Below, one piece after another: positions 1 to 60,301 of a stretch of DNA of 64,000 nucleotides. The stretch comes from Fimbriimonadaceae bacterium (GTDB lineage Bacteria > Armatimonadota > Fimbriimonadia > Fimbriimonadales > Fimbriimonadaceae): NCBI GenBank assembly GCA_019638775.1, contig JAHBTD010000005.1:3345-67344 (forward strand), in the 5' to 3' direction. Below the pieces are notes generated by a model. That model ran no database searches. It had not been told where the DNA came from and saw only the letters and a list, made by a program, of their open reading frames with translations. Within the stretch, counting starts at the first letter, position 1; the number at the start of each line of letters is the position of its first letter. Position numbers and translations under genes: made by a program.

Positions 1-93
1 AGATTGTTTCGACGTGAGACTGTAGGTTCCTTCAAAGGAGTTTGTGGCGTTTAGGAGAACTTTAGGTGGGATGGGGTGAAATGGTGTTGGTAA

Positions 94-219
94 GTCGTGA
101 GTCGTGAGTCGTGAGTCGTGAGTCGTGAGGCGTGAGGCGTGAGGCGTGAGGTGTAAGGCGTAAGGCGTAAGGCGTAAGGCGTAAGGCGTGAGTGTTGAGT
201 GCTGAGTGCTGAGTGTTGA
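94..219 (+). repeat. Tandem heptanucleotide array, 18 units
   Basis: (GTCGTGA)5(GGCGTGA)3 GGTGTAA (GGCGTAA)4 GGCGTGA GTGTTGA (GTGCTGA)2 GTGTTGA, read directly. No indel over 126 nt. Every unit carries TGA or TAA on the + strand. Confidence 0.95.
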
Positions 220-240
220 GTTGGGGGGTATCAGTCATCG

Positions 241-290
241 GCGATCAGCTGCCGGATACTTCCGATAGCGGTTCGCAGATAGCTGATCGC
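241..290. promoter_or_regulatory. Perfect 10-bp inverted repeat GCGATCAGCT-N30-AGCTGATCGC upstream of the first operon
   Basis: The arms are exact reverse complements. The repeat ends 7 nt before the SD AGGAGG (298-303). Its function (operator or RNA stem) is not established. Confidence 0.3.
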
Positions 291-308
291 TGATTACAGG
301 AGGCATGA

Positions 309-2519
309 GTGATGAGCTTAATAGTCGCAGGATTAGCAATGATGGCTTTAGGAGGTTCGATGATGGGAGAGTCTATTCAGTCGTTGCCTGCCTCACAGAT
401 GAAGGCATCCAAGGATGATTGGCTCTTAGGCCAAGGCGACAATGTGACGCGCGTTTTTCATGACCGCGAACAGAACTCGCTCATCCTTGCAAACGGCCTC
501 GTCGCACGAAGGTTCTTTACGCATCCAACGGGTTTGGGCACCTTTTCTATCGAAAACTTGGTGAGCCAGGAGACGTTAGTTCGTGCCGTGCGGCCCGAAG
601 CCTTACTGACTCTCAATGGAACGGAATACACGATTGGTGGCTATTCTGGACAACCTGACTCGGGTTATTTCCTACTGGACTGGTTGAAGTTGATGACGCC
701 TAATCCAAGCCGGGCAAATTCGGGTGGCTTTGTGGCTGCGTCCACGCTTCCAAGGTTTGAGTGGAAGGCAGTCCGACTGTCTGAGGGCAAGTCATGGCCC
801 CCGAAAGGTGTTCACATATTCTTGAACACCGAATTGAAAATCAAGGAGTCAGATACGCCGGTTAGAGTGGAAGTCCACTACGAGATGTATGACGGCTTGC
901 CCTTGATGAGCAAGTGGGTGACGATTAGGAACGTCACCGACAAGCCGATTCGTCTCAACTCCTTCATCGTCGAGCAGTTGGCGATGGTTGAGCCGGAGTC
1001 GCAGGTTGACCATCAGGCCGAATGGCTGAAGCCGAACGTGACGGTTCTGACCGATTACTCGTTTGGCGGGATGGCGACGATGAACTCTGCCAAATGTGTG
1101 AACTGGGTGCCTGACCCCGACTACAAGACGCAGGTCAATTACGATTTGAAGACTCCTTGTTTGCTGGAGGTTAAGCCACCGCTTGGGCCGGATGTGGATA
1201 TTCAGCCGAACAGTTCGTTCGACACCTTCCGAATCTACGAACTGTTTCACGACTCTTGGGATCGGGAGCGTAAGGGGCTTGCTGTGCGCAAAATGATGCG
1301 GACCATCGCTCCGTGGTGCACCGAGAACCCGCTCATGCTGCACCTGACGAGCACGGATCCGAAGGTTGTTCTTCCTGCCATCGACCAAGCGGCGGAAGTC
1401 GGTTTTGAGATGGTGATCTTTAGCTTTGGGAGTGGGCTGAATATGGAGGATGCGTCACCTGGGAATATTGCCAAGTTCAAGGAGTTTCGCGATTACGCCA
1501 GAAAGAAGGGGCTGGATTTGGGCGGCTATTCGCTTCTGGCGAGTCGTCGGATTGACGATAAGAACGATGTTATCAACCCCAAGACTGGGAAACCTGGGGG
1601 TGCGATTTTTGGGAATTCTCCGTGTCTTGAAAGCGAGTGGGGGCATCGCTATTTTGACGATCTAAAGGCGTTTATCCGGGGAACTGGGTTCAGCATTCTC
1701 GAGCACGATGGAAGCTACCCGGGCGATGTTTGCGCCTCGACAACCCATCCCGGACACAAGGGTTTGGAGGACTCTCAGTGGACGCAGTACCAGCGCATCA
1801 AGGAGCTTTATGAGTGGTGCCGGGGAGAGGGGATTTACCTGAACATCCCCGACTTCTATTTTTTGGTCGGGGGAAGCAAAACTGGGATGGGCTATCGGGA
1901 GACGAACTGGTCGTTGCCAAGGGCGCAGCAGCACATCCACTGCCGCCAAAACCTCTATGACGGCACTTGGGAAAAGACGCCGAGCATGGGCTGGATGTTT
2001 GTGCCGCTGGTTCAGTATCAGGGCGGCGGAGCGGCTGCCACTATCGAGCCGTTGAAGGATCATCTTCAAGACTACGAGATGCATTTGGCGAACAACCTCG
2101 GCTACGGTGCGCAGGCTTGCTATCGCGGACCACGGCTGTACGATACGCCGGAGACGAAGGCCGTTGTCGTGAAGTGGGTGTCGTGGTTCAAGAAGTACCG
2201 CGACATATTGGAGTCGGATGTGATCCACGTTCGACGGGCGGACGGACGCAATCTCGATTGCATTCTTCACGCAAATCCAGCTTTGGAGCGCAAGGGGATG
2301 GTGATGGTTTACAATCCGACTCATGAGCCGCTGACTCAAGAGATCACGTTGCCGCTGTATTACACAGGAATCGAAAATGAGTGCATGATCGGCGAGCAGG
2401 ATAAGAGCTCAAAAAAGGTCAAGCTGAGCCGCGATTATAAGATTACGATCAAGCCGACCGTGCCGCAAATGAGCTGCATTTGGTATGTGGTTCGGGATGC
2501 TGAGGTTGCCAAGAAGTGA
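309..2519 (+). CDS. Putative secreted glycoside hydrolase / TIM-barrel carbohydrate-active enzyme (family unresolved)
   Basis: 736-aa ORF. SD AGGAGG lies 5 nt before GTG 309 (ATG at 312). N-terminus is hydrophobic. The central region (VIFSFGSG...ILEHDGSYPGD...) looks like an alpha-galactosidase-like barrel. The gene heads a sugar-permease operon. Confidence 0.55.
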   Translation: MMSLIVAGLAMMALGGSMMGESIQSLPASQMKASKDDWLLGQGDNVTRVFHDREQNSLILANGLVARRFFTHPTGLGTFSIENLVSQETLVRAVRPEALLTLNGTEYTIGGYSGQPDSGYFLLDWLKLMTPNPSRANSGGFVAASTLPRFEWKAVRLSEGKSWPPKGVHIFLNTELKIKESDTPVRVEVHYEMYDGLPLMSKWVTIRNVTDKPIRLNSFIVEQLAMVEPESQVDHQAEWLKPNVTVLTDYSFGGMATMNSAKCVNWVPDPDYKTQVNYDLKTPCLLEVKPPLGPDVDIQPNSSFDTFRIYELFHDSWDRERKGLAVRKMMRTIAPWCTENPLMLHLTSTDPKVVLPAIDQAAEVGFEMVIFSFGSGLNMEDASPGNIAKFKEFRDYARKKGLDLGGYSLLASRRIDDKNDVINPKTGKPGGAIFGNSPCLESEWGHRYFDDLKAFIRGTGFSILEHDGSYPGDVCASTTHPGHKGLEDSQWTQYQRIKELYEWCRGEGIYLNIPDFYFLVGGSKTGMGYRETNWSLPRAQQHIHCRQNLYDGTWEKTPSMGWMFVPLVQYQGGGAAATIEPLKDHLQDYEMHLANNLGYGAQACYRGPRLYDTPETKAVVVKWVSWFKKYRDILESDVIHVRRADGRNLDCILHANPALERKGMVMVYNPTHEPLTQEITLPLYYTGIENECMIGEQDKSSKKVKLSRDYKITIKPTVPQMSCIWYVVRDAEVAKK

Positions 2520-3403: not shown

Positions 3404-4275
3404 GGCAGCGCTCTGGGCGGCGTCTAACCCTGCCCGATTTGGCAAGTTTCCTCCTTACGCGGTTGGGCATGGGGTTGTTTTTGGCGGCGGTTATCCTCCC
3501 GCTGCTGTGGGTGTTGATCTCGTCGGTCAAATCGAGTACGGAGATTTTTGGCTCGCCTTGGAGTTTGCCCGAGAGTCCGCAATGGTCGAACTACAGCGGA
3601 GCTTGGGGGGATGCGGGAATCGGTCGGCATTTTCTCAATTCACTGGTTGTGTGCGTGGCGACCCTTGTTCTCTTGCTGCCGATTGGGTCGATGGCGGCCT
3701 ACGTCTTTGCCAAATACCCTTTTCGAGGGTCGAAGTCGCTTTTCAGCGTCTTTCTCGGCGGGATGATGTTTCCGAATCTGTTGGTCATCATTCCTGTTTT
3801 CCTGCTTTTGAAATCTCTGCCTGGTGGGAGTGAAGGGCTCGTCGACACTAAGACAGGGCTTGTGCTCGTGTACGTCGCATTTTCCTTGTCCTTCACGGTG
3901 TTTGTGATGAGCGGATTCTTTGAAGCGCTGCCCGACGAGCTTGGCGAGGCGGCGATGCTTGATGGCTGTGGGCATTCCGGAATCTTTTGGAAGGTGATGT
4001 TTCCGCTCGCTCGTCCGGGGATGATTGTGGTTGGCATTTTCAATGCGATTGGGTTATGGAATGAATATAACTTGGCGGTTGCCTTAATTCATACACCCGA
4101 GAACCTAACGCTGCCTTTAGCGCTTGCCGATCTGACGACGAAGGGAACCTATGAGAGCGATTGGGGGATGCTCTTTGCGGCGATGGTGATTGTGATGCTG
4201 CCGATCATCGTGGTTTATTGGATTTTCCGAGAGAAGATTCACGAGACGATGCTGGCAGGCGCGATTAAGGGGTGA
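3400..4275 (+). CDS. Carbohydrate ABC transporter permease (MalG/UgpE type)
   Basis: ATGA overlap with the upstream stop. EAA loop LGEAAMLDGCGHSGIFWKVMFPLARPG. Confidence 0.9.
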   Translation: MRQRSGRRLTLPDLASFLLTRLGMGLFLAAVILPLLWVLISSVKSSTEIFGSPWSLPESPQWSNYSGAWGDAGIGRHFLNSLVVCVATLVLLLPIGSMAAYVFAKYPFRGSKSLFSVFLGGMMFPNLLVIIPVFLLLKSLPGGSEGLVDTKTGLVLVYVAFSLSFTVFVMSGFFEALPDELGEAAMLDGCGHSGIFWKVMFPLARPGMIVVGIFNAIGLWNEYNLAVALIHTPENLTLPLALADLTTKGTYESDWGMLFAAMVIVMLPIIVVYWIFREKIHETMLAGAIKG

Positions 4276-4282
4276 GTTGGGA

Positions 4283-4303
4283 GCGATGAGCGATGAATGA
4301 TGA
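4283..4303 (+). repeat. Heptamer array (GCGATGA)2 ATGATGA
   Basis: Starts 8 nt after the permease stop codon (4273-4275). Each unit contains TGA. Confidence 0.85.
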
Positions 4304-4370
4304 ATAGGGAGTCTTGGACATCGAAGAGGGACGAGTTGGTGGGCTCAAGTGTGCTGCAATGACTTCTTTT

Positions 4371-4412
4371 TTCAGATTTCAGATTTCAGACCTCTGACCT
4401 CTGACCTCTGTT
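4371..4412 (+). repeat. Heptamer array (TTCAGAT)2 TTCAGAC (CTCTGAC)2 CTCTGTT
   Basis: Six in-phase 7-nt units, read directly. Lies 67 nt after the previous array, in a gene-free spacer. Confidence 0.9.
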
Positions 4413-6507: not shown

Positions 6508-6526
6508 GGGCTTTTTTGGGGGGCGT

Positions 6527-6658
6527 CGGCAGGTTGTTGGCAGGTTGTCGGCAAGTTGTCGGCAAGTGGTCGGCAGGTGGTCGGCAGGTGGTCGGCACGT
6601 TGTTGGCAGATGGTCGGCAAGTGGTCGGCACGTTGTTGGCAGATGGTTGGCAGGTGGT
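6527..6658 (+). repeat. Tandem 11-nt array, 12 units (consensus YGGCARNTKGT)
   Basis: cggcaggttgt tggcaggttgt cggcaagttgt cggcaagtggt cggcaggtggt x2 cggcacgttgt tggcagatggt cggcaagtggt cggcacgttgt tggcagatggt tggcaggtggt. Starts 20 nt after the oxidoreductase stop. Confidence 0.95.
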
Positions 6659-16265: not shown

Positions 16266-19200
16266 ATGCTTTCCTGTCTGCTCGTCGCGGTTTTGATGCC
16301 CGCTGCTGGGAGTCTTCAGCCCGCACAACTGAGGTGTGAAGCTCTTGCCAACCCGGTTGGAGTTGCCACGGCAACTCCGCGCTTGAGTTGGAAGCTGAAC
16401 GCCACCGACAAAGCTGCACACAACCTGCGTCAAACGGGTTACCGGATCACGGTTGGAAGCCAGTCCGGGAAGAGTGATTTGTGGGATACGGGCAAGGTCC
16501 AGTCGGGAGACACGTTCGGAATCGCCTATGCCGGCAAGCCGCTCGCATCGGGACAGAAGGTTTGGTGGAGGGTGCAGGTCTTCGACCAGAAGGGCGTCGC
16601 CTCCGACTGGAGCGCGGCTGCCGAATGGTCGGTCGGTCTGCTGAAGCCTAGCGATTGGAAGGCGCAATGGATCGGCTACGACGCCCCGGTGAATGCCAAC
16701 CGGTCGCGCGATCCGTTCAGCGATGCGTCGTGGATTTGGGCGGAATCGGGGGATGTCGTCTACTTCAAGCGGGTTCTGGTGCTGAACGCTGGCTTCACCA
16801 AAGCGACTCTGCGCATCACGGCTGACGATCAGTTCTCGGCGACGATCAACGGACACAAGGTTGCCGAGAGTGACGGCAAGACGGACGCATGGCGACGACC
16901 GGTCGAAGTGGACGTGACCGACAAGCTGCTGACGGCAGACAACACGATCCTCGTTCGGGCGACGAATTCGGGCGGGGCGGCGGGCTTGCTCGCCAAGCTG
17001 ACCGTCGCATACACGGGCAACAACGCAGTCGAGATGTCGACGGGCAGCGCATGGCAGGTGGCGACTTCGGAGAGCGGGCCGTTCACTCCGGCGAAGGTGC
17101 TCGGCGCTTACGGAGCGGAGCCTTGGGGCCGCGTCGGGCCGCAGAACCTCCACCTTCCTCCGCCGCGACTTCTGCGCCATGAATTCTCCTTGAACAAGCC
17201 GGTCAAGCGGGCTATCCTTTACGGCTCGGCTCTTGGTCTGCTCGATCTTCGGCTGAACGGCAAAGCCGTCACCGACGAGCTGTTCATGCCGGGATGGACC
17301 GACTACACGAAGCGCGTCTACGCTCGCGGCTACGATGTCACCAAAGCGCTGAAGCAGGGCAACAATGCGGTCGGCGTCGTCTTGGGCGACGGCTGGTATT
17401 CCGGCTACGTGGGCTACGGCGGACGGCGAAACCACTACGGCACGAAGACGCGGGCTTTGGTGCAGCTGAACGTCGAATACACCGACGGCACGACTCAGAC
17501 CATCGCCAGCGGACCGGATTGGAAGGCCAGCACCGGCCCAACGCTGGAAGGCGACTTCCTTATGGGTGAGGCCTACGACGCCCGGCTGGAGAAGGCGGGC
17601 TGGGACAGCGCAGGATATTCGGATCGAGGCTGGTTCTCGGTGCAGACGGGCGCGGAGATGAATCCCGTCGTCGAACCGTTCCCTGGGCAGCCGGTGCGCC
17701 CCTATGAAGTGCTGAAGGCGAAGACGGTCACCGAGCCCAAGCCGGGGGTTTATGTGCTGGACCTCGGGCAGAATCTGGCGGGATTTGCGAGGCTGAAGGT
17801 CAAGGGGGAGAAGGGACAGAAGATCGTGCTGCGCTTTGCCGAACGGCTGAGCCCAGACGGAAACATCTACACCACCAACCTTCGCGGCGCGCGCACGATC
17901 GACACCTACATCTGCAAAGGGGAGGGCGTCGAGACGTGGTCGCCCAAGTTCACTTTCCACGGCTTCCAGTACATCGAAGTGACGGGGCTTGGGCACAAGC
18001 CCGCGCCCGATGAAGTGGTCGGGATCGCCATCAGCAGCGATACGCCCGACGCAGGAACTCTGGAGACCAGCGACCCGATGCTCAACCGGCTGGTGAAAAA
18101 TGCTTGGTGGACGCAGAAGATGAACTTCATCGACATCCCCACCGACTGCCCCCAGCGCGACGAGCGGTTGGGCTGGACCGGAGATGCGCAGGCCTACATC
18201 CGCACGGCGACGATGCTGAACGACGTTCAGCCGTTCTTCGCGAAGTGGCTCGTCTCACTGGACGACGCTCAGCGCGAAGACGGGCAGTATCCGATGGTCG
18301 CCCCGCTCAAGGTTGCGGGCGGGGACGGCGGTCCGGCGTGGGCCGATGCGGGTGTCATCTGCCCGTGGACGATCTACGACGTTTATGGCGACAAGGAGCT
18401 TTTGGCCCGCCACTATCCGCAGATGAAGAAGTTCATCGAGTTCTGCGTGAAGCGGTCTACGCCGGAGATGCTGCCTCCCAAGCAGTTCCACTGCTTCGGC
18501 GACTGGGTGAGCATCAACGCGAACACCCCGAACGAAGTGATCTACACCGCCTACTTCGCAGGCTCGGCAAGGCTCCTCGCTCAAGCGGCATCTGCGCTCG
18601 GCAAGCCCGACGAAGCCCAAAAGCATATGGCCCTTTATCGCCAGGTTCGGGCGGCTTTTCAGAAAGCCTACGTCAAGCCGGACGGCTCGGTTTTGGGCGA
18701 TACGCAATGCTCGTACATCCTGGCTCTGGTGTTCGACCTTTTGGAGCCGGAGATGGTGGGCAAGGTCGCTGACCGCCTGGTCGCCGATATTGAGAAGCGC
18801 GGATGGCACCTTTCCACCGGGTTCGTCGGCACGCGCGACATCATGCACGTCCTCAGCAAGATCGGGCGCAACGACGTGGCGTTCCGGCTTCTCCACAACG
18901 ACACTTTCCCCAGTTGGGGCTTCACCATCAAAAACGGCGCGACCAGCATCTGGGAGCGGTGGGACGGCTGGACGCCGGAAAAGGGCTTCCAAGACCCCGG
19001 CATGAACTCCTTTGCCCACTATGCGTTTGGAGCCGTTGTGGGGTGGATGTTTGCCCAGCCCGCGGGCATCGACAACCTCGCGCCTGGGTTCAAGAGGATC
19101 AAGATCGCGCCGCAGATCGACCCCAAGCTAACCTGGCTGAAGTCGTCTTACGATTCCGTCCGGGGCAGGATCGTGTCGGAATGGAGCGTGAAGGACGGAA

Positions 19201-19355
19201 AGCTGACGATGCGGGTGGTGATTCCGCCGAATACGACGGCGGAGATTCACGTTCCGGCGACGGGGGTAGAAGCCACTCCGAAAGTAGAGGCAAGCGCGGA
19301 CCGCATCTACCGGGTGGGCTCGGGCGAGTATACGTTTGTTGGGAAGCTGAGGTGA
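16266..19355 (+). CDS. Alpha-L-rhamnosidase, glycoside hydrolase family 78
   Basis: Signal peptide. LRCEALANPVGV...PRLSWKL start. Catalytic-domain motif DCPQRDERLGWTGDAQ. Confidence 0.9.
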   Translation: MLSCLLVAVLMPAAGSLQPAQLRCEALANPVGVATATPRLSWKLNATDKAAHNLRQTGYRITVGSQSGKSDLWDTGKVQSGDTFGIAYAGKPLASGQKVWWRVQVFDQKGVASDWSAAAEWSVGLLKPSDWKAQWIGYDAPVNANRSRDPFSDASWIWAESGDVVYFKRVLVLNAGFTKATLRITADDQFSATINGHKVAESDGKTDAWRRPVEVDVTDKLLTADNTILVRATNSGGAAGLLAKLTVAYTGNNAVEMSTGSAWQVATSESGPFTPAKVLGAYGAEPWGRVGPQNLHLPPPRLLRHEFSLNKPVKRAILYGSALGLLDLRLNGKAVTDELFMPGWTDYTKRVYARGYDVTKALKQGNNAVGVVLGDGWYSGYVGYGGRRNHYGTKTRALVQLNVEYTDGTTQTIASGPDWKASTGPTLEGDFLMGEAYDARLEKAGWDSAGYSDRGWFSVQTGAEMNPVVEPFPGQPVRPYEVLKAKTVTEPKPGVYVLDLGQNLAGFARLKVKGEKGQKIVLRFAERLSPDGNIYTTNLRGARTIDTYICKGEGVETWSPKFTFHGFQYIEVTGLGHKPAPDEVVGIAISSDTPDAGTLETSDPMLNRLVKNAWWTQKMNFIDIPTDCPQRDERLGWTGDAQAYIRTATMLNDVQPFFAKWLVSLDDAQREDGQYPMVAPLKVAGGDGGPAWADAGVICPWTIYDVYGDKELLARHYPQMKKFIEFCVKRSTPEMLPPKQFHCFGDWVSINANTPNEVIYTAYFAGSARLLAQAASALGKPDEAQKHMALYRQVRAAFQKAYVKPDGSVLGDTQCSYILALVFDLLEPEMVGKVADRLVADIEKRGWHLSTGFVGTRDIMHVLSKIGRNDVAFRLLHNDTFPSWGFTIKNGATSIWERWDGWTPEKGFQDPGMNSFAHYAFGAVVGWMFAQPAGIDNLAPGFKRIKIAPQIDPKLTWLKSSYDSVRGRIVSEWSVKDGKLTMRVVIPPNTTAEIHVPATGVEATPKVEASADRIYRVGSGEYTFVGKLR

Positions 19356-19387
19356 TGCGTGAATCGTGAATCGTGAATCGTGAATCG
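19353..19387 (+). repeat. Heptamer array TGATGCG (TGAATCG)4
   Basis: The first TGA of the array is the GH78 stop codon (19353-19355). Five in-phase units, each with TGA. Confidence 0.9.
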
Positions 19388-19514
19388 TAGGATGGACTTC
19401 ATGAGTTGTTTGAAATCTGCGTTTGTTGCCTAGCCCTGCTCGTGCTCTAAACTCATCCACAAAATGCTTGGCGGAGGCTTGGTCTTTTGTCGCTTTTGCA
19501 CCATCATATAGGCG

Positions 19515-59009: not shown

Positions 59010-59039
59010 AACGATGAACGATGAACGATGAACGATGAG
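59010..59039 (+). repeat. Heptamer array (AACGATG)4 AG; left arm of the inverted repeat around the four-helix-bundle gene
   Basis: 59023-59039 GAACGATGAACGATGAG is the exact reverse complement of 59481-59497. Confidence 0.95.
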
Positions 59040-59072: not shown

Positions 59073-59444
59073 TCATTTCTTTCGCTCCTTTGCTTTCTTC
59101 ACTGAGGCTACAAAGATCCGGGTGAGCTCTCCTGCTTCTGTCAGAATAGGCTCAACTTGTTCCTTTGAGGCTACACCAGCTTCAACAAGTAGTTCGTGCC
59201 AATAGCACGTCTCTTCCAATTCTTGCAATGCGACCTCCAGTTTACTGATGAACTCAGCGGTTGATCTGGCCCGATAACCTTCGCGATAATGAGCACCTAC
59301 TGATGCGCCCGATCTTACAGCCTGTTTTCCAAAAATCTGCGCAACGGTGCCGTTTGGTAACGATGAGTAAAGCCGAACTACTTCAATCGCAAAGCCCTTA
59401 GTTCTCCTATGCAAATCTTGAAGCTTGCTATTCGGCTCGATCAT
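59073..59444 (-). CDS. Four-helix-bundle protein (23S rRNA intervening-sequence protein / S23p family)
   Basis: ...FAIEVVRLYSSLP...IFGKQAVRSGASVGAHYREGYRARSTAEFISKLEVALQELEETCYWHELL... is the family signature. 123 aa. Confidence 0.85.
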   Translation of the reverse strand: MIEPNSKLQDLHRRTKGFAIEVVRLYSSLPNGTVAQIFGKQAVRSGASVGAHYREGYRARSTAEFISKLEVALQELEETCYWHELLVEAGVASKEQVEPILTEAGELTRIFVASVKKAKERKK

Positions 59445-59480: not shown

Positions 59481-59564
59481 CTCATCGTTCATCGTTCCTA
59501 CTTCATCGTTATCAATCATTGCTCCCCCTTCATCACTCCTCAATCCTCATTCATGATTCATTTT
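59481..59564 (-). repeat. Degenerating heptamer array, about 12 units (CTCATCG TTCATCG TTCCTAC TTCATCG TTATCAA ...); right arm of the inverted repeat
   Basis: In phase for 84 nt. On the minus strand most units contain TGA. The array runs into the sdhB stop codon (59558-59560). Confidence 0.85.
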
Positions 59565-60301
59565 TTCTTGCCAAACCGGAACAGCTTCGCCAGTGGATCG
59601 TAATGCGCGTCCACAACTCTTTCTTTCAACGGGATAATCGCGTTGTCCGTGATCTTGATATGTTCCGGGCAGACCACCGTGCAGCATTTTGTGATGTTGC
59701 AATAGCCGATGCTGTCGCGTTTTTTTAGGTCGTCGATGCGGTCTTCCGTATCCAGCGGGTGCATCTCTAAAGCTGCCGAATACACAAACAGTCGCGGTCC
59801 GATGAATTCGTCGTGCTTCTTATGCTCGCGCAGGACGTGGCAGACGTTTTGGCACAGGAAGCACTCGATGCACTTTCGGAACTCCTGCACGCGCTCCACG
59901 TCTTCTTGGTCGATGCGCCAAGTGCCGTCTTCGGCATCGGGCTTGCGAGGCTTGAACGGCTTGATGGTCTTCTTGGCGCGGTAGTTCCACGAGACGTCGG
60001 TGACGAGGTCTTTGATGAGCGGAAACGCCTTCATCGGCTCGACCTTGACCGGCTCATCAAGGGGAAGATCGCTACACCGGGTCATGCACATCAGGCGCGG
60101 CATGCCGTTGATCTCGGCAGAGCAGGAGCCGCATTTGCCGGCTTTGCAGTTCCAGCGCACCGCCATGTCGGGGGCGTGCTCGGCCTGGATCTGGTGGATG
60201 ACGTCGAGGACAACCATGCCTTCGGTGACTTCGGCGGGGTAATCCTCAAACTTGCCGTCTTCGGCGGTCCCCCGCCAGATTCTAAAAGTAACTCTTGCCA
60301 T
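59558..60301 (-). CDS. sdhB: Succinate dehydrogenase/fumarate reductase iron-sulfur subunit
   Basis: Cys clusters CKAGKCGSCSAEING, CIECFLCQNVC and CTVVCP. 1-nt TAATG overlap with sdhA. Confidence 0.9.
   Translation of the reverse strand: MARVTFRIWRGTAEDGKFEDYPAEVTEGMVVLDVIHQIQAEHAPDMAVRWNCKAGKCGSCSAEINGMPRLMCMTRCSDLPLDEPVKVEPMKAFPLIKDLVTDVSWNYRAKKTIKPFKPRKPDAEDGTWRIDQEDVERVQEFRKCIECFLCQNVCHVLREHKKHDEFIGPRLFVYSAALEMHPLDTEDRIDDLKKRDSIGYCNITKCCTVVCPEHIKITDNAIIPLKERVVDAHYDPLAKLFRFGKKK

Follow-up and report, generated by a model that had tools for sequence, protein, structure and literature searches.

An 18-unit heptamer array in a Fimbriimonadaceae genome and the polar repeat population to which it belongs

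The STRR heptanucleotides of heterocystous cyanobacteria (Calothrix PCC 7601) are reportedly several tandem heptanucleotides dispersed mostly in non-coding DNA; to our knowledge, their original description did not include polarity or adjacency to stop codons. Intergenic arrays of (GGGAATC)n in Xanthomonas and of (GGGGAYT)n in Nostoc PCC 7120 number in the hundreds per genome; most of them are transcribed, and related genomes differ in array length and sequence (Rehm et al., 2015, PMC4692102). In Geobacter metallireducens, a 'four tandem heptanucleotide repeat', GGGACCG, is found at 49 inter- and intragenic sites, alongside paired class 1–3 repeat sites; both kinds of element were annotated there as putative sites of regulator binding or as regulatory RNAs (Aklujkar et al., 2009, PMC2700814). 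For the TAACTGA repeats found in marine Beggiatoaceae and in some Cyanobacteria and Bacteroidetes, a part in initiating translation has been suggested (MacGregor, 2015, PMC4679880). Among long simple repeats, heptamers are the most frequent type in many bacteria, and slippage of the polymerase has been invoked to account for them (Mrazek, 2007, as cited in PMC4679880). The simple-sequence contingency loci of host-adapted pathogens such as Haemophilus and Moraxella have units of 1–5 nt, are few per genome and lie at surface or virulence genes (PMC4679880, PMC12721329). Here we describe an array of 18 heptamers at positions 94–219 of a 64,000-nt stretch of DNA from a Fimbriimonadaceae bacterium, referred to as the window (C72:3345-67344 of the source genome, G000). 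The array is a member of the known bacterial heptamer repeat class. We consider it, with a probability of about 0.78, to be an expanded member of that class that was resized by slippage of whole units and is tolerated in non-coding DNA, its stop codons being incidental. Slippage as the mechanism of resizing and the neutrality of the array are what we infer.

The array and the genome-wide heptamer population

The array reads (GTCGTGA)5 (GGCGTGA)3 GGTGTAA (GGCGTAA)4 GGCGTGA GTGTTGA (GTGCTGA)2 GTGTTGA on the + strand. These are exactly the units given in an initial annotation of this DNA: 18 heptamers in phase, extending over 126 nt with no indel. Tandem Repeats Finder (TRF) assigns the array a period of 7. 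As the same annotation stated, stop codons occur in all three + frames and are absent from the complement, with six in each + frame and none in any - frame. The units change in blocks, and this block-wise drift is beyond chance: 10 of the 17 adjacent pairs are identical, compared with 2.7 expected when the units are shuffled (p < 1e-5). The pattern fits mutation followed by local duplication, in agreement with the repeated slippage suggested initially. The most likely history is growth and diversification of the array through slipped-strand mispairing, or else unequal exchange, acting on whole 7-nt units. A point mutation in a single unit would later have been copied into a block, and the array would persist because it is non-coding and lies in the middle of a divergent spacer.

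The array is one of many in this genome (4.3 Mb in 126 contigs, 55.7% G+C). TRF reports 451 rows of period 7, of which 258 have at least four copies; the corresponding numbers are 13 for period 6 and 10 for period 8. Using a strict custom detector, we found 160 arrays of period 7 and at most 11 at each of periods 5, 6 and 8–13. The merged set, on which the placement and orientation counts are based, contains 291 arrays of at least three copies, and the array at 94–219 is the 12th longest among them. Genome-wide there are 81 distinct units, dominated by GATTTTG (57 arrays), GATAGCT (28), ATCGGCT (26), GATTGTA (20) and GATCGCT (14). Also prominent is the GAGTCGT/GTGAGKC family, which includes the array at 94–219; about 20 other loci carry members of this GTGAGKC/GTAAGGC family, and the pattern GTGAGKC x3 has 54 matches in the source genome. 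Copy number has its mode at 4–5 units (116 of the 451 TRF rows), and 31 of 60 GATTTTG-type arrays consist of four full units. The arrays are clustered, with 144 neighbour pairs no more than 3 kb apart.

Stop codons, placement and polarity

The initial annotation interpreted the array as a strand-specific stop in all frames and proposed that related arrays abut the stop codons of upstream genes. The placement is borne out genome-wide. Genes were called with our own method combining open reading frames (ORFs) and codon scores, which gives 3605 genes covering 84% of the genome; stop positions are exact, whereas start positions are inexact, so that distances to starts are approximate. Arrays start within -20 to +9 nt of a stop codon in 91 of 291 cases, compared with approximately 19 under random intergenic placement, and 34 overlap a gene's stop codon. 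In the same genome-wide placement test, there was no excess of arrays at start codons. Two thirds of the arrays (66%) are fully intergenic, compared with 16% of the genome. Convergent spacers hold more arrays than expected (65 versus 48) and divergent spacers fewer (33 versus 51.5; p = 0.0017), in line with what has been published for Xanthomonas (PMC4692102). The array at 94–219 itself lies in the disfavoured context.

Could arrays abut stop codons because they truncated the ORF? Downstream of the rpoC-like gene of the source genome, an array begins 2 nt past the native stop, and the C-terminus and stop of this gene are identical in five genera. Abutting therefore needs no gene truncation, and we reject truncation as the reason, at least for the rpoC-like gene. 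The genes with an adjacent array also differ in their choice of stop codon: TAG is used by 44 of the 91, in a genome where the three stop codons are about equally used. The stop is often in phase with the first unit, as in TAG+ATTTTGG and TGA+TTTTGG.

The orientation of the arrays does not follow their stop codons. Among 58 arrays located 0–10 nt behind a stop and not overlapping it, stops in all frames are present on the sense strand only in 21, on the antisense strand only in 20, on neither in 16 and on both in 1. The suggestion that TGA is placed on the strand of the upstream gene holds for the GTRAGNN family, to which the array at 94–219 belongs and in which all 14 arrays behind stops have their stop codons on the sense strand, but it does not hold genome-wide. 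In the ATCRGCN family, arrays behind stops favor 18:3 the orientation that places their stops on the antisense strand. The frequency of stop codons is also that expected from composition. When the letters of the dominant unit are permuted, 50% are expected to have a stop on the G-rich strand and 49% of arrays do; for the sense strand of arrays behind stops, the values are 50% and 41%. The sole departure is the C-rich strand, on which stops are depleted (12% versus 29% expected). The all-frame stop of the array at 94–219 is therefore what the letters GTGA and GTAA give. Furthermore, the array is located in a divergent spacer, at least 85–95 nt away from both gene starts, where no + strand gene ends and none enters the array. 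The stop codons of the arrays are incidental, a product of the unit letters and not a selected translational stop.

The arrays are polar nonetheless. For skewed arrays within 10 nt past a stop codon, G-richness falls on the sense strand in 61 of 66 (61:5); the ratio is 33 of 37 for non-overlapping arrays and 32 of 36 beside high-scoring genes. Within 30 nt upstream of a start codon, the G-rich strand is antisense in 19 of 22 arrays, placing the C-rich strand on the sense strand 19:3. Beyond 10 nt after stops and 30 nt before starts, the polarity fades. The first half of this rule has already been published for the heptamers of Xanthomonas and Nostoc (PMC4692102). All four main families are 'forward' after stops and 'reverse' before starts, with 'forward':'reverse' counts after stops of 18:3 for ATCRGCN, 22:2 for GATTNNN, 14:0 for GTRAGNN and 3:0 for GATGANN. 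Because the ATCRGCN family has low skew and is polar too, G-richness as the only orientation rule is rejected.

The same polarity is seen when the arrays are sorted by their position in the spacer. Arrays nearer the left edge are 'forward' on the top strand 76:24, and those nearer the right edge are 'reverse' 79:23 (Fisher p = 2e-14). This forward-then-reverse rule holds separately in convergent, divergent and both tandem arrangements, and skewed neighbour pairs (both arrays skewed, no more than 3 kb apart) are in G-then-C order 27 times and in C-then-G order 6 times. Polarity is centred on the spacer, not on the sense of the adjoining gene. The initial annotation had held that random placement and orientation would make these arrays plain microsatellites; they are neither randomly placed nor randomly oriented, but their orientation is relative to the geometry of the spacer and not to the stop codon. 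The array at 94–219 is itself 'forward' but sits in mid-spacer, outside the range of the rule.

We also asked whether orientation reflects the replication strand. The G-richness of arrays agrees with the local GC skew in 72% of cases. Behind stops, where the strand of the gene and the local skew are in conflict, array orientation agrees with the gene in 13 of 17 cases, and the skew is patchy; replication strand is thus rejected as the main cause of orientation. Skew is positive (0.04–0.18) across nearly all of window 1–64000 irrespective of gene strand, contig C1 contains a 200-kb stretch with a skew of -0.13 to -0.17, and no clean two-arm pattern appears along the contigs.

The locus, sister arrays, protein inserts and relatives

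On its left, the spacer is bounded by a 1051-codon ORF on the - strand (C72:188-3343) that begins just left of window position 1 and encodes a GH116-like protein with a twin-arginine signal. The longest form of this ORF opens with MPRKKPLPQ, and the signal (MNESDPETSRRTVLKGAAGG) starts 24 codons later; the true start is probably the ATG 24 codons inside, just before the signal, which would extend the divergent spacer to about 380 nt. On the right, a + strand operon starts at about 309–312, preceded by AGGAGG at 298–303, and encodes a glycosidase-like protein, two ABC permeases, a TIM-barrel protein and a Gfo/Idh/MocA oxidoreductase. Between these genes, the array at 94–219 is G-rich on the + strand, and the remaining spacer is also built of heptamers. 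Three degenerate ATCRGCN units at 231–251 (+ strand; TATCAGT CATCGGC GATCAGC), seen in a period-7 match map, are 'forward' and form the left arm of a small inverted pair. Its right arm, at 264–294 (+ strand; GATAGCG GTTCGCA GATAGCT GATCGCT GAT), is a degenerate 'reverse' ATCRGCN array that TRF reports as period 14 over 264–294 and as period 7 over 273–294; it ends 3 nt before the AGGAGG. This small pair conforms to the polarity rule.

Searches of window 1–400 gave no match to Rfam covariance models at E <= 1 and detected neither promoter-like nor terminator-like sites; hexamers resembling a promoter were seen neither within the array nor next to it. No inverted partner of the array is present within 150 nt, where the best scores, 6 and 5, are at the level of the reversed-flank control, and no ORF was found in the spacer. 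On these grounds, we rejected the array as an intrinsic (Rho-independent) terminator, with its G+C-rich hairpin and following T run, for which both a terminator-like site and an inverted partner are missing, and as an arm of a cassette of the PF05635 or intervening-sequence type, for which there is neither a matching inverted array within 150 nt nor a spacer ORF.

The window contains sister arrays, as initially annotated, which TRF and direct reading place at five positions. The first, at 4281–4303 (+ strand; GAGCGAT GAGCGAT GAATGAT GA..), starts 5 nt past the stop TGA of a permease gene (4273–4275) and has a G-rich sense strand. Two abutting arrays, (TTTCAGA)3 and (GACCTCT)3, occupy 4370–4410 (+ strand) in the spacer before the TIM-barrel gene, where a crude ORF call reads through both. 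At 19353–19388 (+ strand; TGATGCG (TGAATCG)4), the first TGA is the stop of a GH78 rhamnosidase gene (16266–19355). The last two, (AACGATG)4 at 59010–59038 and (TCATCGT)4 at 59482–59510 (both as read on the + strand), are the arms of an inverted pair around a PF05635 four-helix-bundle gene on the - strand (59073–59444). It had been proposed that three of the sisters lie within 8 nt of a stop codon with TGA on the strand of that gene. This is correct for 4281 and 19353 but not for the remainder. On the - strand, the array at 59482–59510 reads ACGATGA, with TGA on the right strand, but it lies 47 nt past the stop, at 59558, of the - strand gene 59558–60301. The array at 59010–59038 lacks stop codons on the strand of the gene behind which it lies; the start of the next - strand gene is 12 nt downstream of it. 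The window also holds an array of another period, at 6525–6658: 12 units of period 11 with a 33-nt super-period and the consensus GTCGGCAGGTG, 20 nt past the last stop of the operon. Period 11 is the second enriched period genome-wide that is not a multiple of 3 (27 arrays of at least four copies).

An inverted partner within 150 nt is found for a minority of arrays, 29 (~10%), compared with 8 in the reversed-flank control. Four of the seven PF05635 genes in the genome lie between inverted arrays (another pair is at C1:1057198/1057734), and one of these pairs is of the GTRAG family. Mini-ORFs of 84–159 codons other than the PF05635 matches are also located between inverted arrays (C1:700596-701075, C39:974499-974957, C39:975172-975426 and C61:42893-43162).

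Arrays are also present in frame inside conserved genes, where they use the stop-free C-rich strand. In MutS (C1:1004387-1007269, - strand; locus L057, C1:1002890-1008769), about 75 array-derived residues lie just before the Walker A motif. This stretch is absent in most relatives; G007 has a short unrelated insert and G013 a longer array-derived one. ArgS (L081, C1:440899-446412) contains three array-derived loops. The first, of SKIQNPKSKI type, is common to the source genome and G007 (L082), and in other genera its place is taken by a loop of nearly equal length. The two ArgS proteins are only 61% identical, yet the G007 DNA is a near-perfect GATTTTG array, suggesting long retention or repeated homogenisation. 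MiaB (L055, C39:51733-53622) and TrmFO (L056, C39:230582-232456) carry long in-frame inserts made up of several arrays together with a REP-like hairpin element rich in G and C, whose translation is PLEGEGCERSEQGRG; this element also flanks arrays in intergenic DNA. In all four proteins, the loops that hold arrays here are array-free in most relatives.

We compared 40 related genomes, which are not independent samples, by searching for two unit words, GATTTTG and the GTGAGGC type. GATTTTG arrays are present in four other genera of the same bacterial family (G017, G013, G019 and G007). GTGAGGC, the word of the array at 94–219, has 67 matches in G018 and 45 in G022. At 15 loci from G017 and G013, arrays cluster, their copy number peaks at about 4.5, and the G-rich strand is sense behind stops 7:1. 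The relatives with many matches to either unit have 9, 9, 6, 4 and 1 PF05635 matches; the remaining relatives mostly have 0–1, except for G007 (7), G020 (5), G026 (4) and G005 (2). The DNA that follows the conserved rpoC-like stop holds arrays, or hairpins built from arrays, in four genera, and the units differ among them. One such hairpin, just past the stop in G015 (L122, G015:C78:27237-31427), has arms of TTGGCGG-type heptamers in a genome without matches to the two searched words, and array-built hairpins may therefore be more widespread than word searches show. For the spacer of the array at 94–219, we examined 42 loci with relatives of the downstream 736-aa protein. The GH116-like gene is adjacent in none of them (0/42), and there is therefore no orthologous spacer for comparison. 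Among the close loci of these relatives, a heptamer array is nearby only in L036.

Alternative explanations and comparison with known systems

Several observations weigh against the reading that we prefer, in which whole-unit slippage resized a tolerated, non-coding array. Two scans of metagenome contigs with the exact flanks found no second copy of the locus with which unit numbers could be compared, and an exact-protein look-up with the neighbouring permease matched no other assembly. In addition, slippage alone does not account for the recurrence of a few unit families at dozens of loci and in other genera, for a peak at 4–5 units in place of a decay with length, or for the fixed polarity of families relative to spacer edges. 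The shared words, the 4–5-unit mode and the polarity suggest that the arrays spread as elements or function at gene boundaries. The alternatives considered here are not mutually exclusive.

A function at gene boundaries could act at the level of RNA or transcription. The 3' ends and leaders of transcripts would be shaped by 'forward' arms that follow a stop and 'reverse' arms that precede a start, for example through hairpins in which the arms pair, G/U-rich tails that exclude Rho, or unstructured leaders rich in C and A; the array at 94–219 would be an outsized member that determines how far apart, or how well insulated, two diverging promoters are. The strength and short range of the polarity are in favor of such a role, as are the publication of the same rule for the mostly transcribed repeats of Xanthomonas and Nostoc (PMC4692102), the different units behind one rpoC-like stop in four genera, and the depletion of stops on the C-rich strand. 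We nevertheless regard it as unlikely. The polarity is alike at starts, at stops and in the four gene arrangements, pointing to spacer geometry and not to gene sense, and 81 units are too many for one binding protein. Only about a tenth of the arrays have an inverted partner. The array at 94–219 has none, and its distance from both starts is one at which no orientation rule appears.

It is likewise improbable, in our view, that the arrays are not passive microsatellites but footprints of a dedicated, horizontally shared system linked to PF05635, which would write or move blocks of 4–5 heptamers, with a fixed outside-to-inside polarity, into spacers and tolerant protein loops. If true, such a system would explain why GTGAGGC and GATTTTG recur across genera, why spacers are 'forward ... 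reverse', and why MutS and ArgS contain arrays.

Arrays could also be the terminal inverted arms of mobile cassettes that carry PF05635 or other mini-genes, with solitary arrays as leftovers that were later expanded by slippage. With terminal inverted repeats, a 'forward ... reverse' polarity centred on the spacer would arise irrespective of the neighbours. The bracketing of four of the seven PF05635 genes, including a pair of the GTRAG family, is consistent with this idea, and so are the PF05635 matches in the unit-rich relatives, the array-bearing protein loops that most relatives lack, and the mode of 4–5 units. However, most arrays are solo, no target duplications were seen, and the array at 94–219 has neither a partner arm nor an adjacent ORF. 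We know of no transposase-like activity of PF05635. Among the relatives, which are not independent samples, G017 is rich in arrays and has one PF05635 gene, whereas G020 and G026 have several genes and no matches to the two tested units. The array in ArgS takes the place of a loop of almost the same length and is no clean insert. We therefore consider an origin from cassettes doubtful.

There is still less to recommend a contingency locus, in which changes in copy number would alter promoter spacing and switch the glycosidase/ABC-permease operon or the GH116-like gene. The array does lie between two diverging sugar-utilisation genes, its long perfect blocks of 5, 4 and 3 identical units are slippage-prone, and, given a helical repeat of ~10.5 bp, each added unit would rotate the flanking sites by about two thirds of a turn. 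But divergent spacers are the least favoured context of arrays, no promoter-like hexamers accompany this one, and 290 arrays at housekeeping genes (rpoC-like, mutS, argS) are unlike a set of contingency genes. Finally, a translational backstop, that is, an array kept to end frameshifted or read-through translation on one strand, is largely refuted already and very improbable: the TGA or TAA in each unit on the + strand only, the 14 sense-oriented GTRAGNN arrays and the 34 overlaps with stop codons would suit it, but orientation behind stops is balanced and reversed in ATCRGCN, stop content is compositional, no + strand gene leads into the array, and polarity extends to start codons and divergent spacers, where no translation arrives.

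The value of an Armatimonadota genome with many unit families is that stop codons, G-richness and spacer geometry can be separated as rules. Stop codons are not the rule, and polarity holds even in families without G/C skew. The outcome is negative for the backstop idea and gives a sharper statement of the polarity rule. Centring on the spacer narrows the explanations to architectures of hairpins or terminal repeats, or to effects that act over short distances at gene edges. For annotation, the arrays call for caution in that they both lengthen ORF calls falsely and add genuine in-frame inserts to essential proteins. The insert in MutS may bear on mismatch repair and hence on repeat stability.

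How does this population compare with the systems described previously? Like contingency loci, the arrays consist of short tandem units, which slippage would resize here; unlike them, there are about 290 arrays of 7-nt units at all kinds of genes. The inverted-repeat cassettes of PF05635 ('23S rRNA intervening sequence protein') resemble the four array-bracketed genes of this genome, not the array at 94–219, which lacks partner and gene. The TAACTGA repeats are likewise intergenic heptamers with stops (TAA, TGA), common to distant lineages and with no known mechanism of spreading. They differ in having a single unit, mostly in 2–6 copies, and in being concentrated a few nucleotides upstream of starts and not behind stops. 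The array at 94–219 does not belong to that family, as its units differ and arrays are not enriched at starts.

In Geobacter, blocks of 4–5 units (7 or 8 nt) occur at dozens of sites between and within genes, often as pairs on opposite strands. There, each class has one consensus; here, there are many families and long expanded arrays such as the 18-unit one. Several different dispersed heptanucleotides in mostly non-coding DNA are a feature shared with STRR, in another phylum and with other units. The Xanthomonas and Nostoc repeats are the nearest counterpart. They differ from the present ones in having one consensus, compared with 81 units here, where families of low skew are polar too, arrays are in frame in conserved proteins, and the host belongs to the Armatimonadota. 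Four or more runs of at least three Gs, as needed for a G-quadruplex, are not present in the array at 94–219; no G run in GTCGTGA, GGCGTGA or GGCGTAA reaches three, and the G-quadruplex explanation of PMC4692102 therefore does not carry over. In their distribution, the two sets agree: hundreds of intergenic arrays per genome, a mode near four units, rarity in coding DNA, inverted pairs, depletion between divergent genes, and a G-rich strand that is sense within 50 bp past stops, cases of overlap with the stop included, and antisense just before starts.

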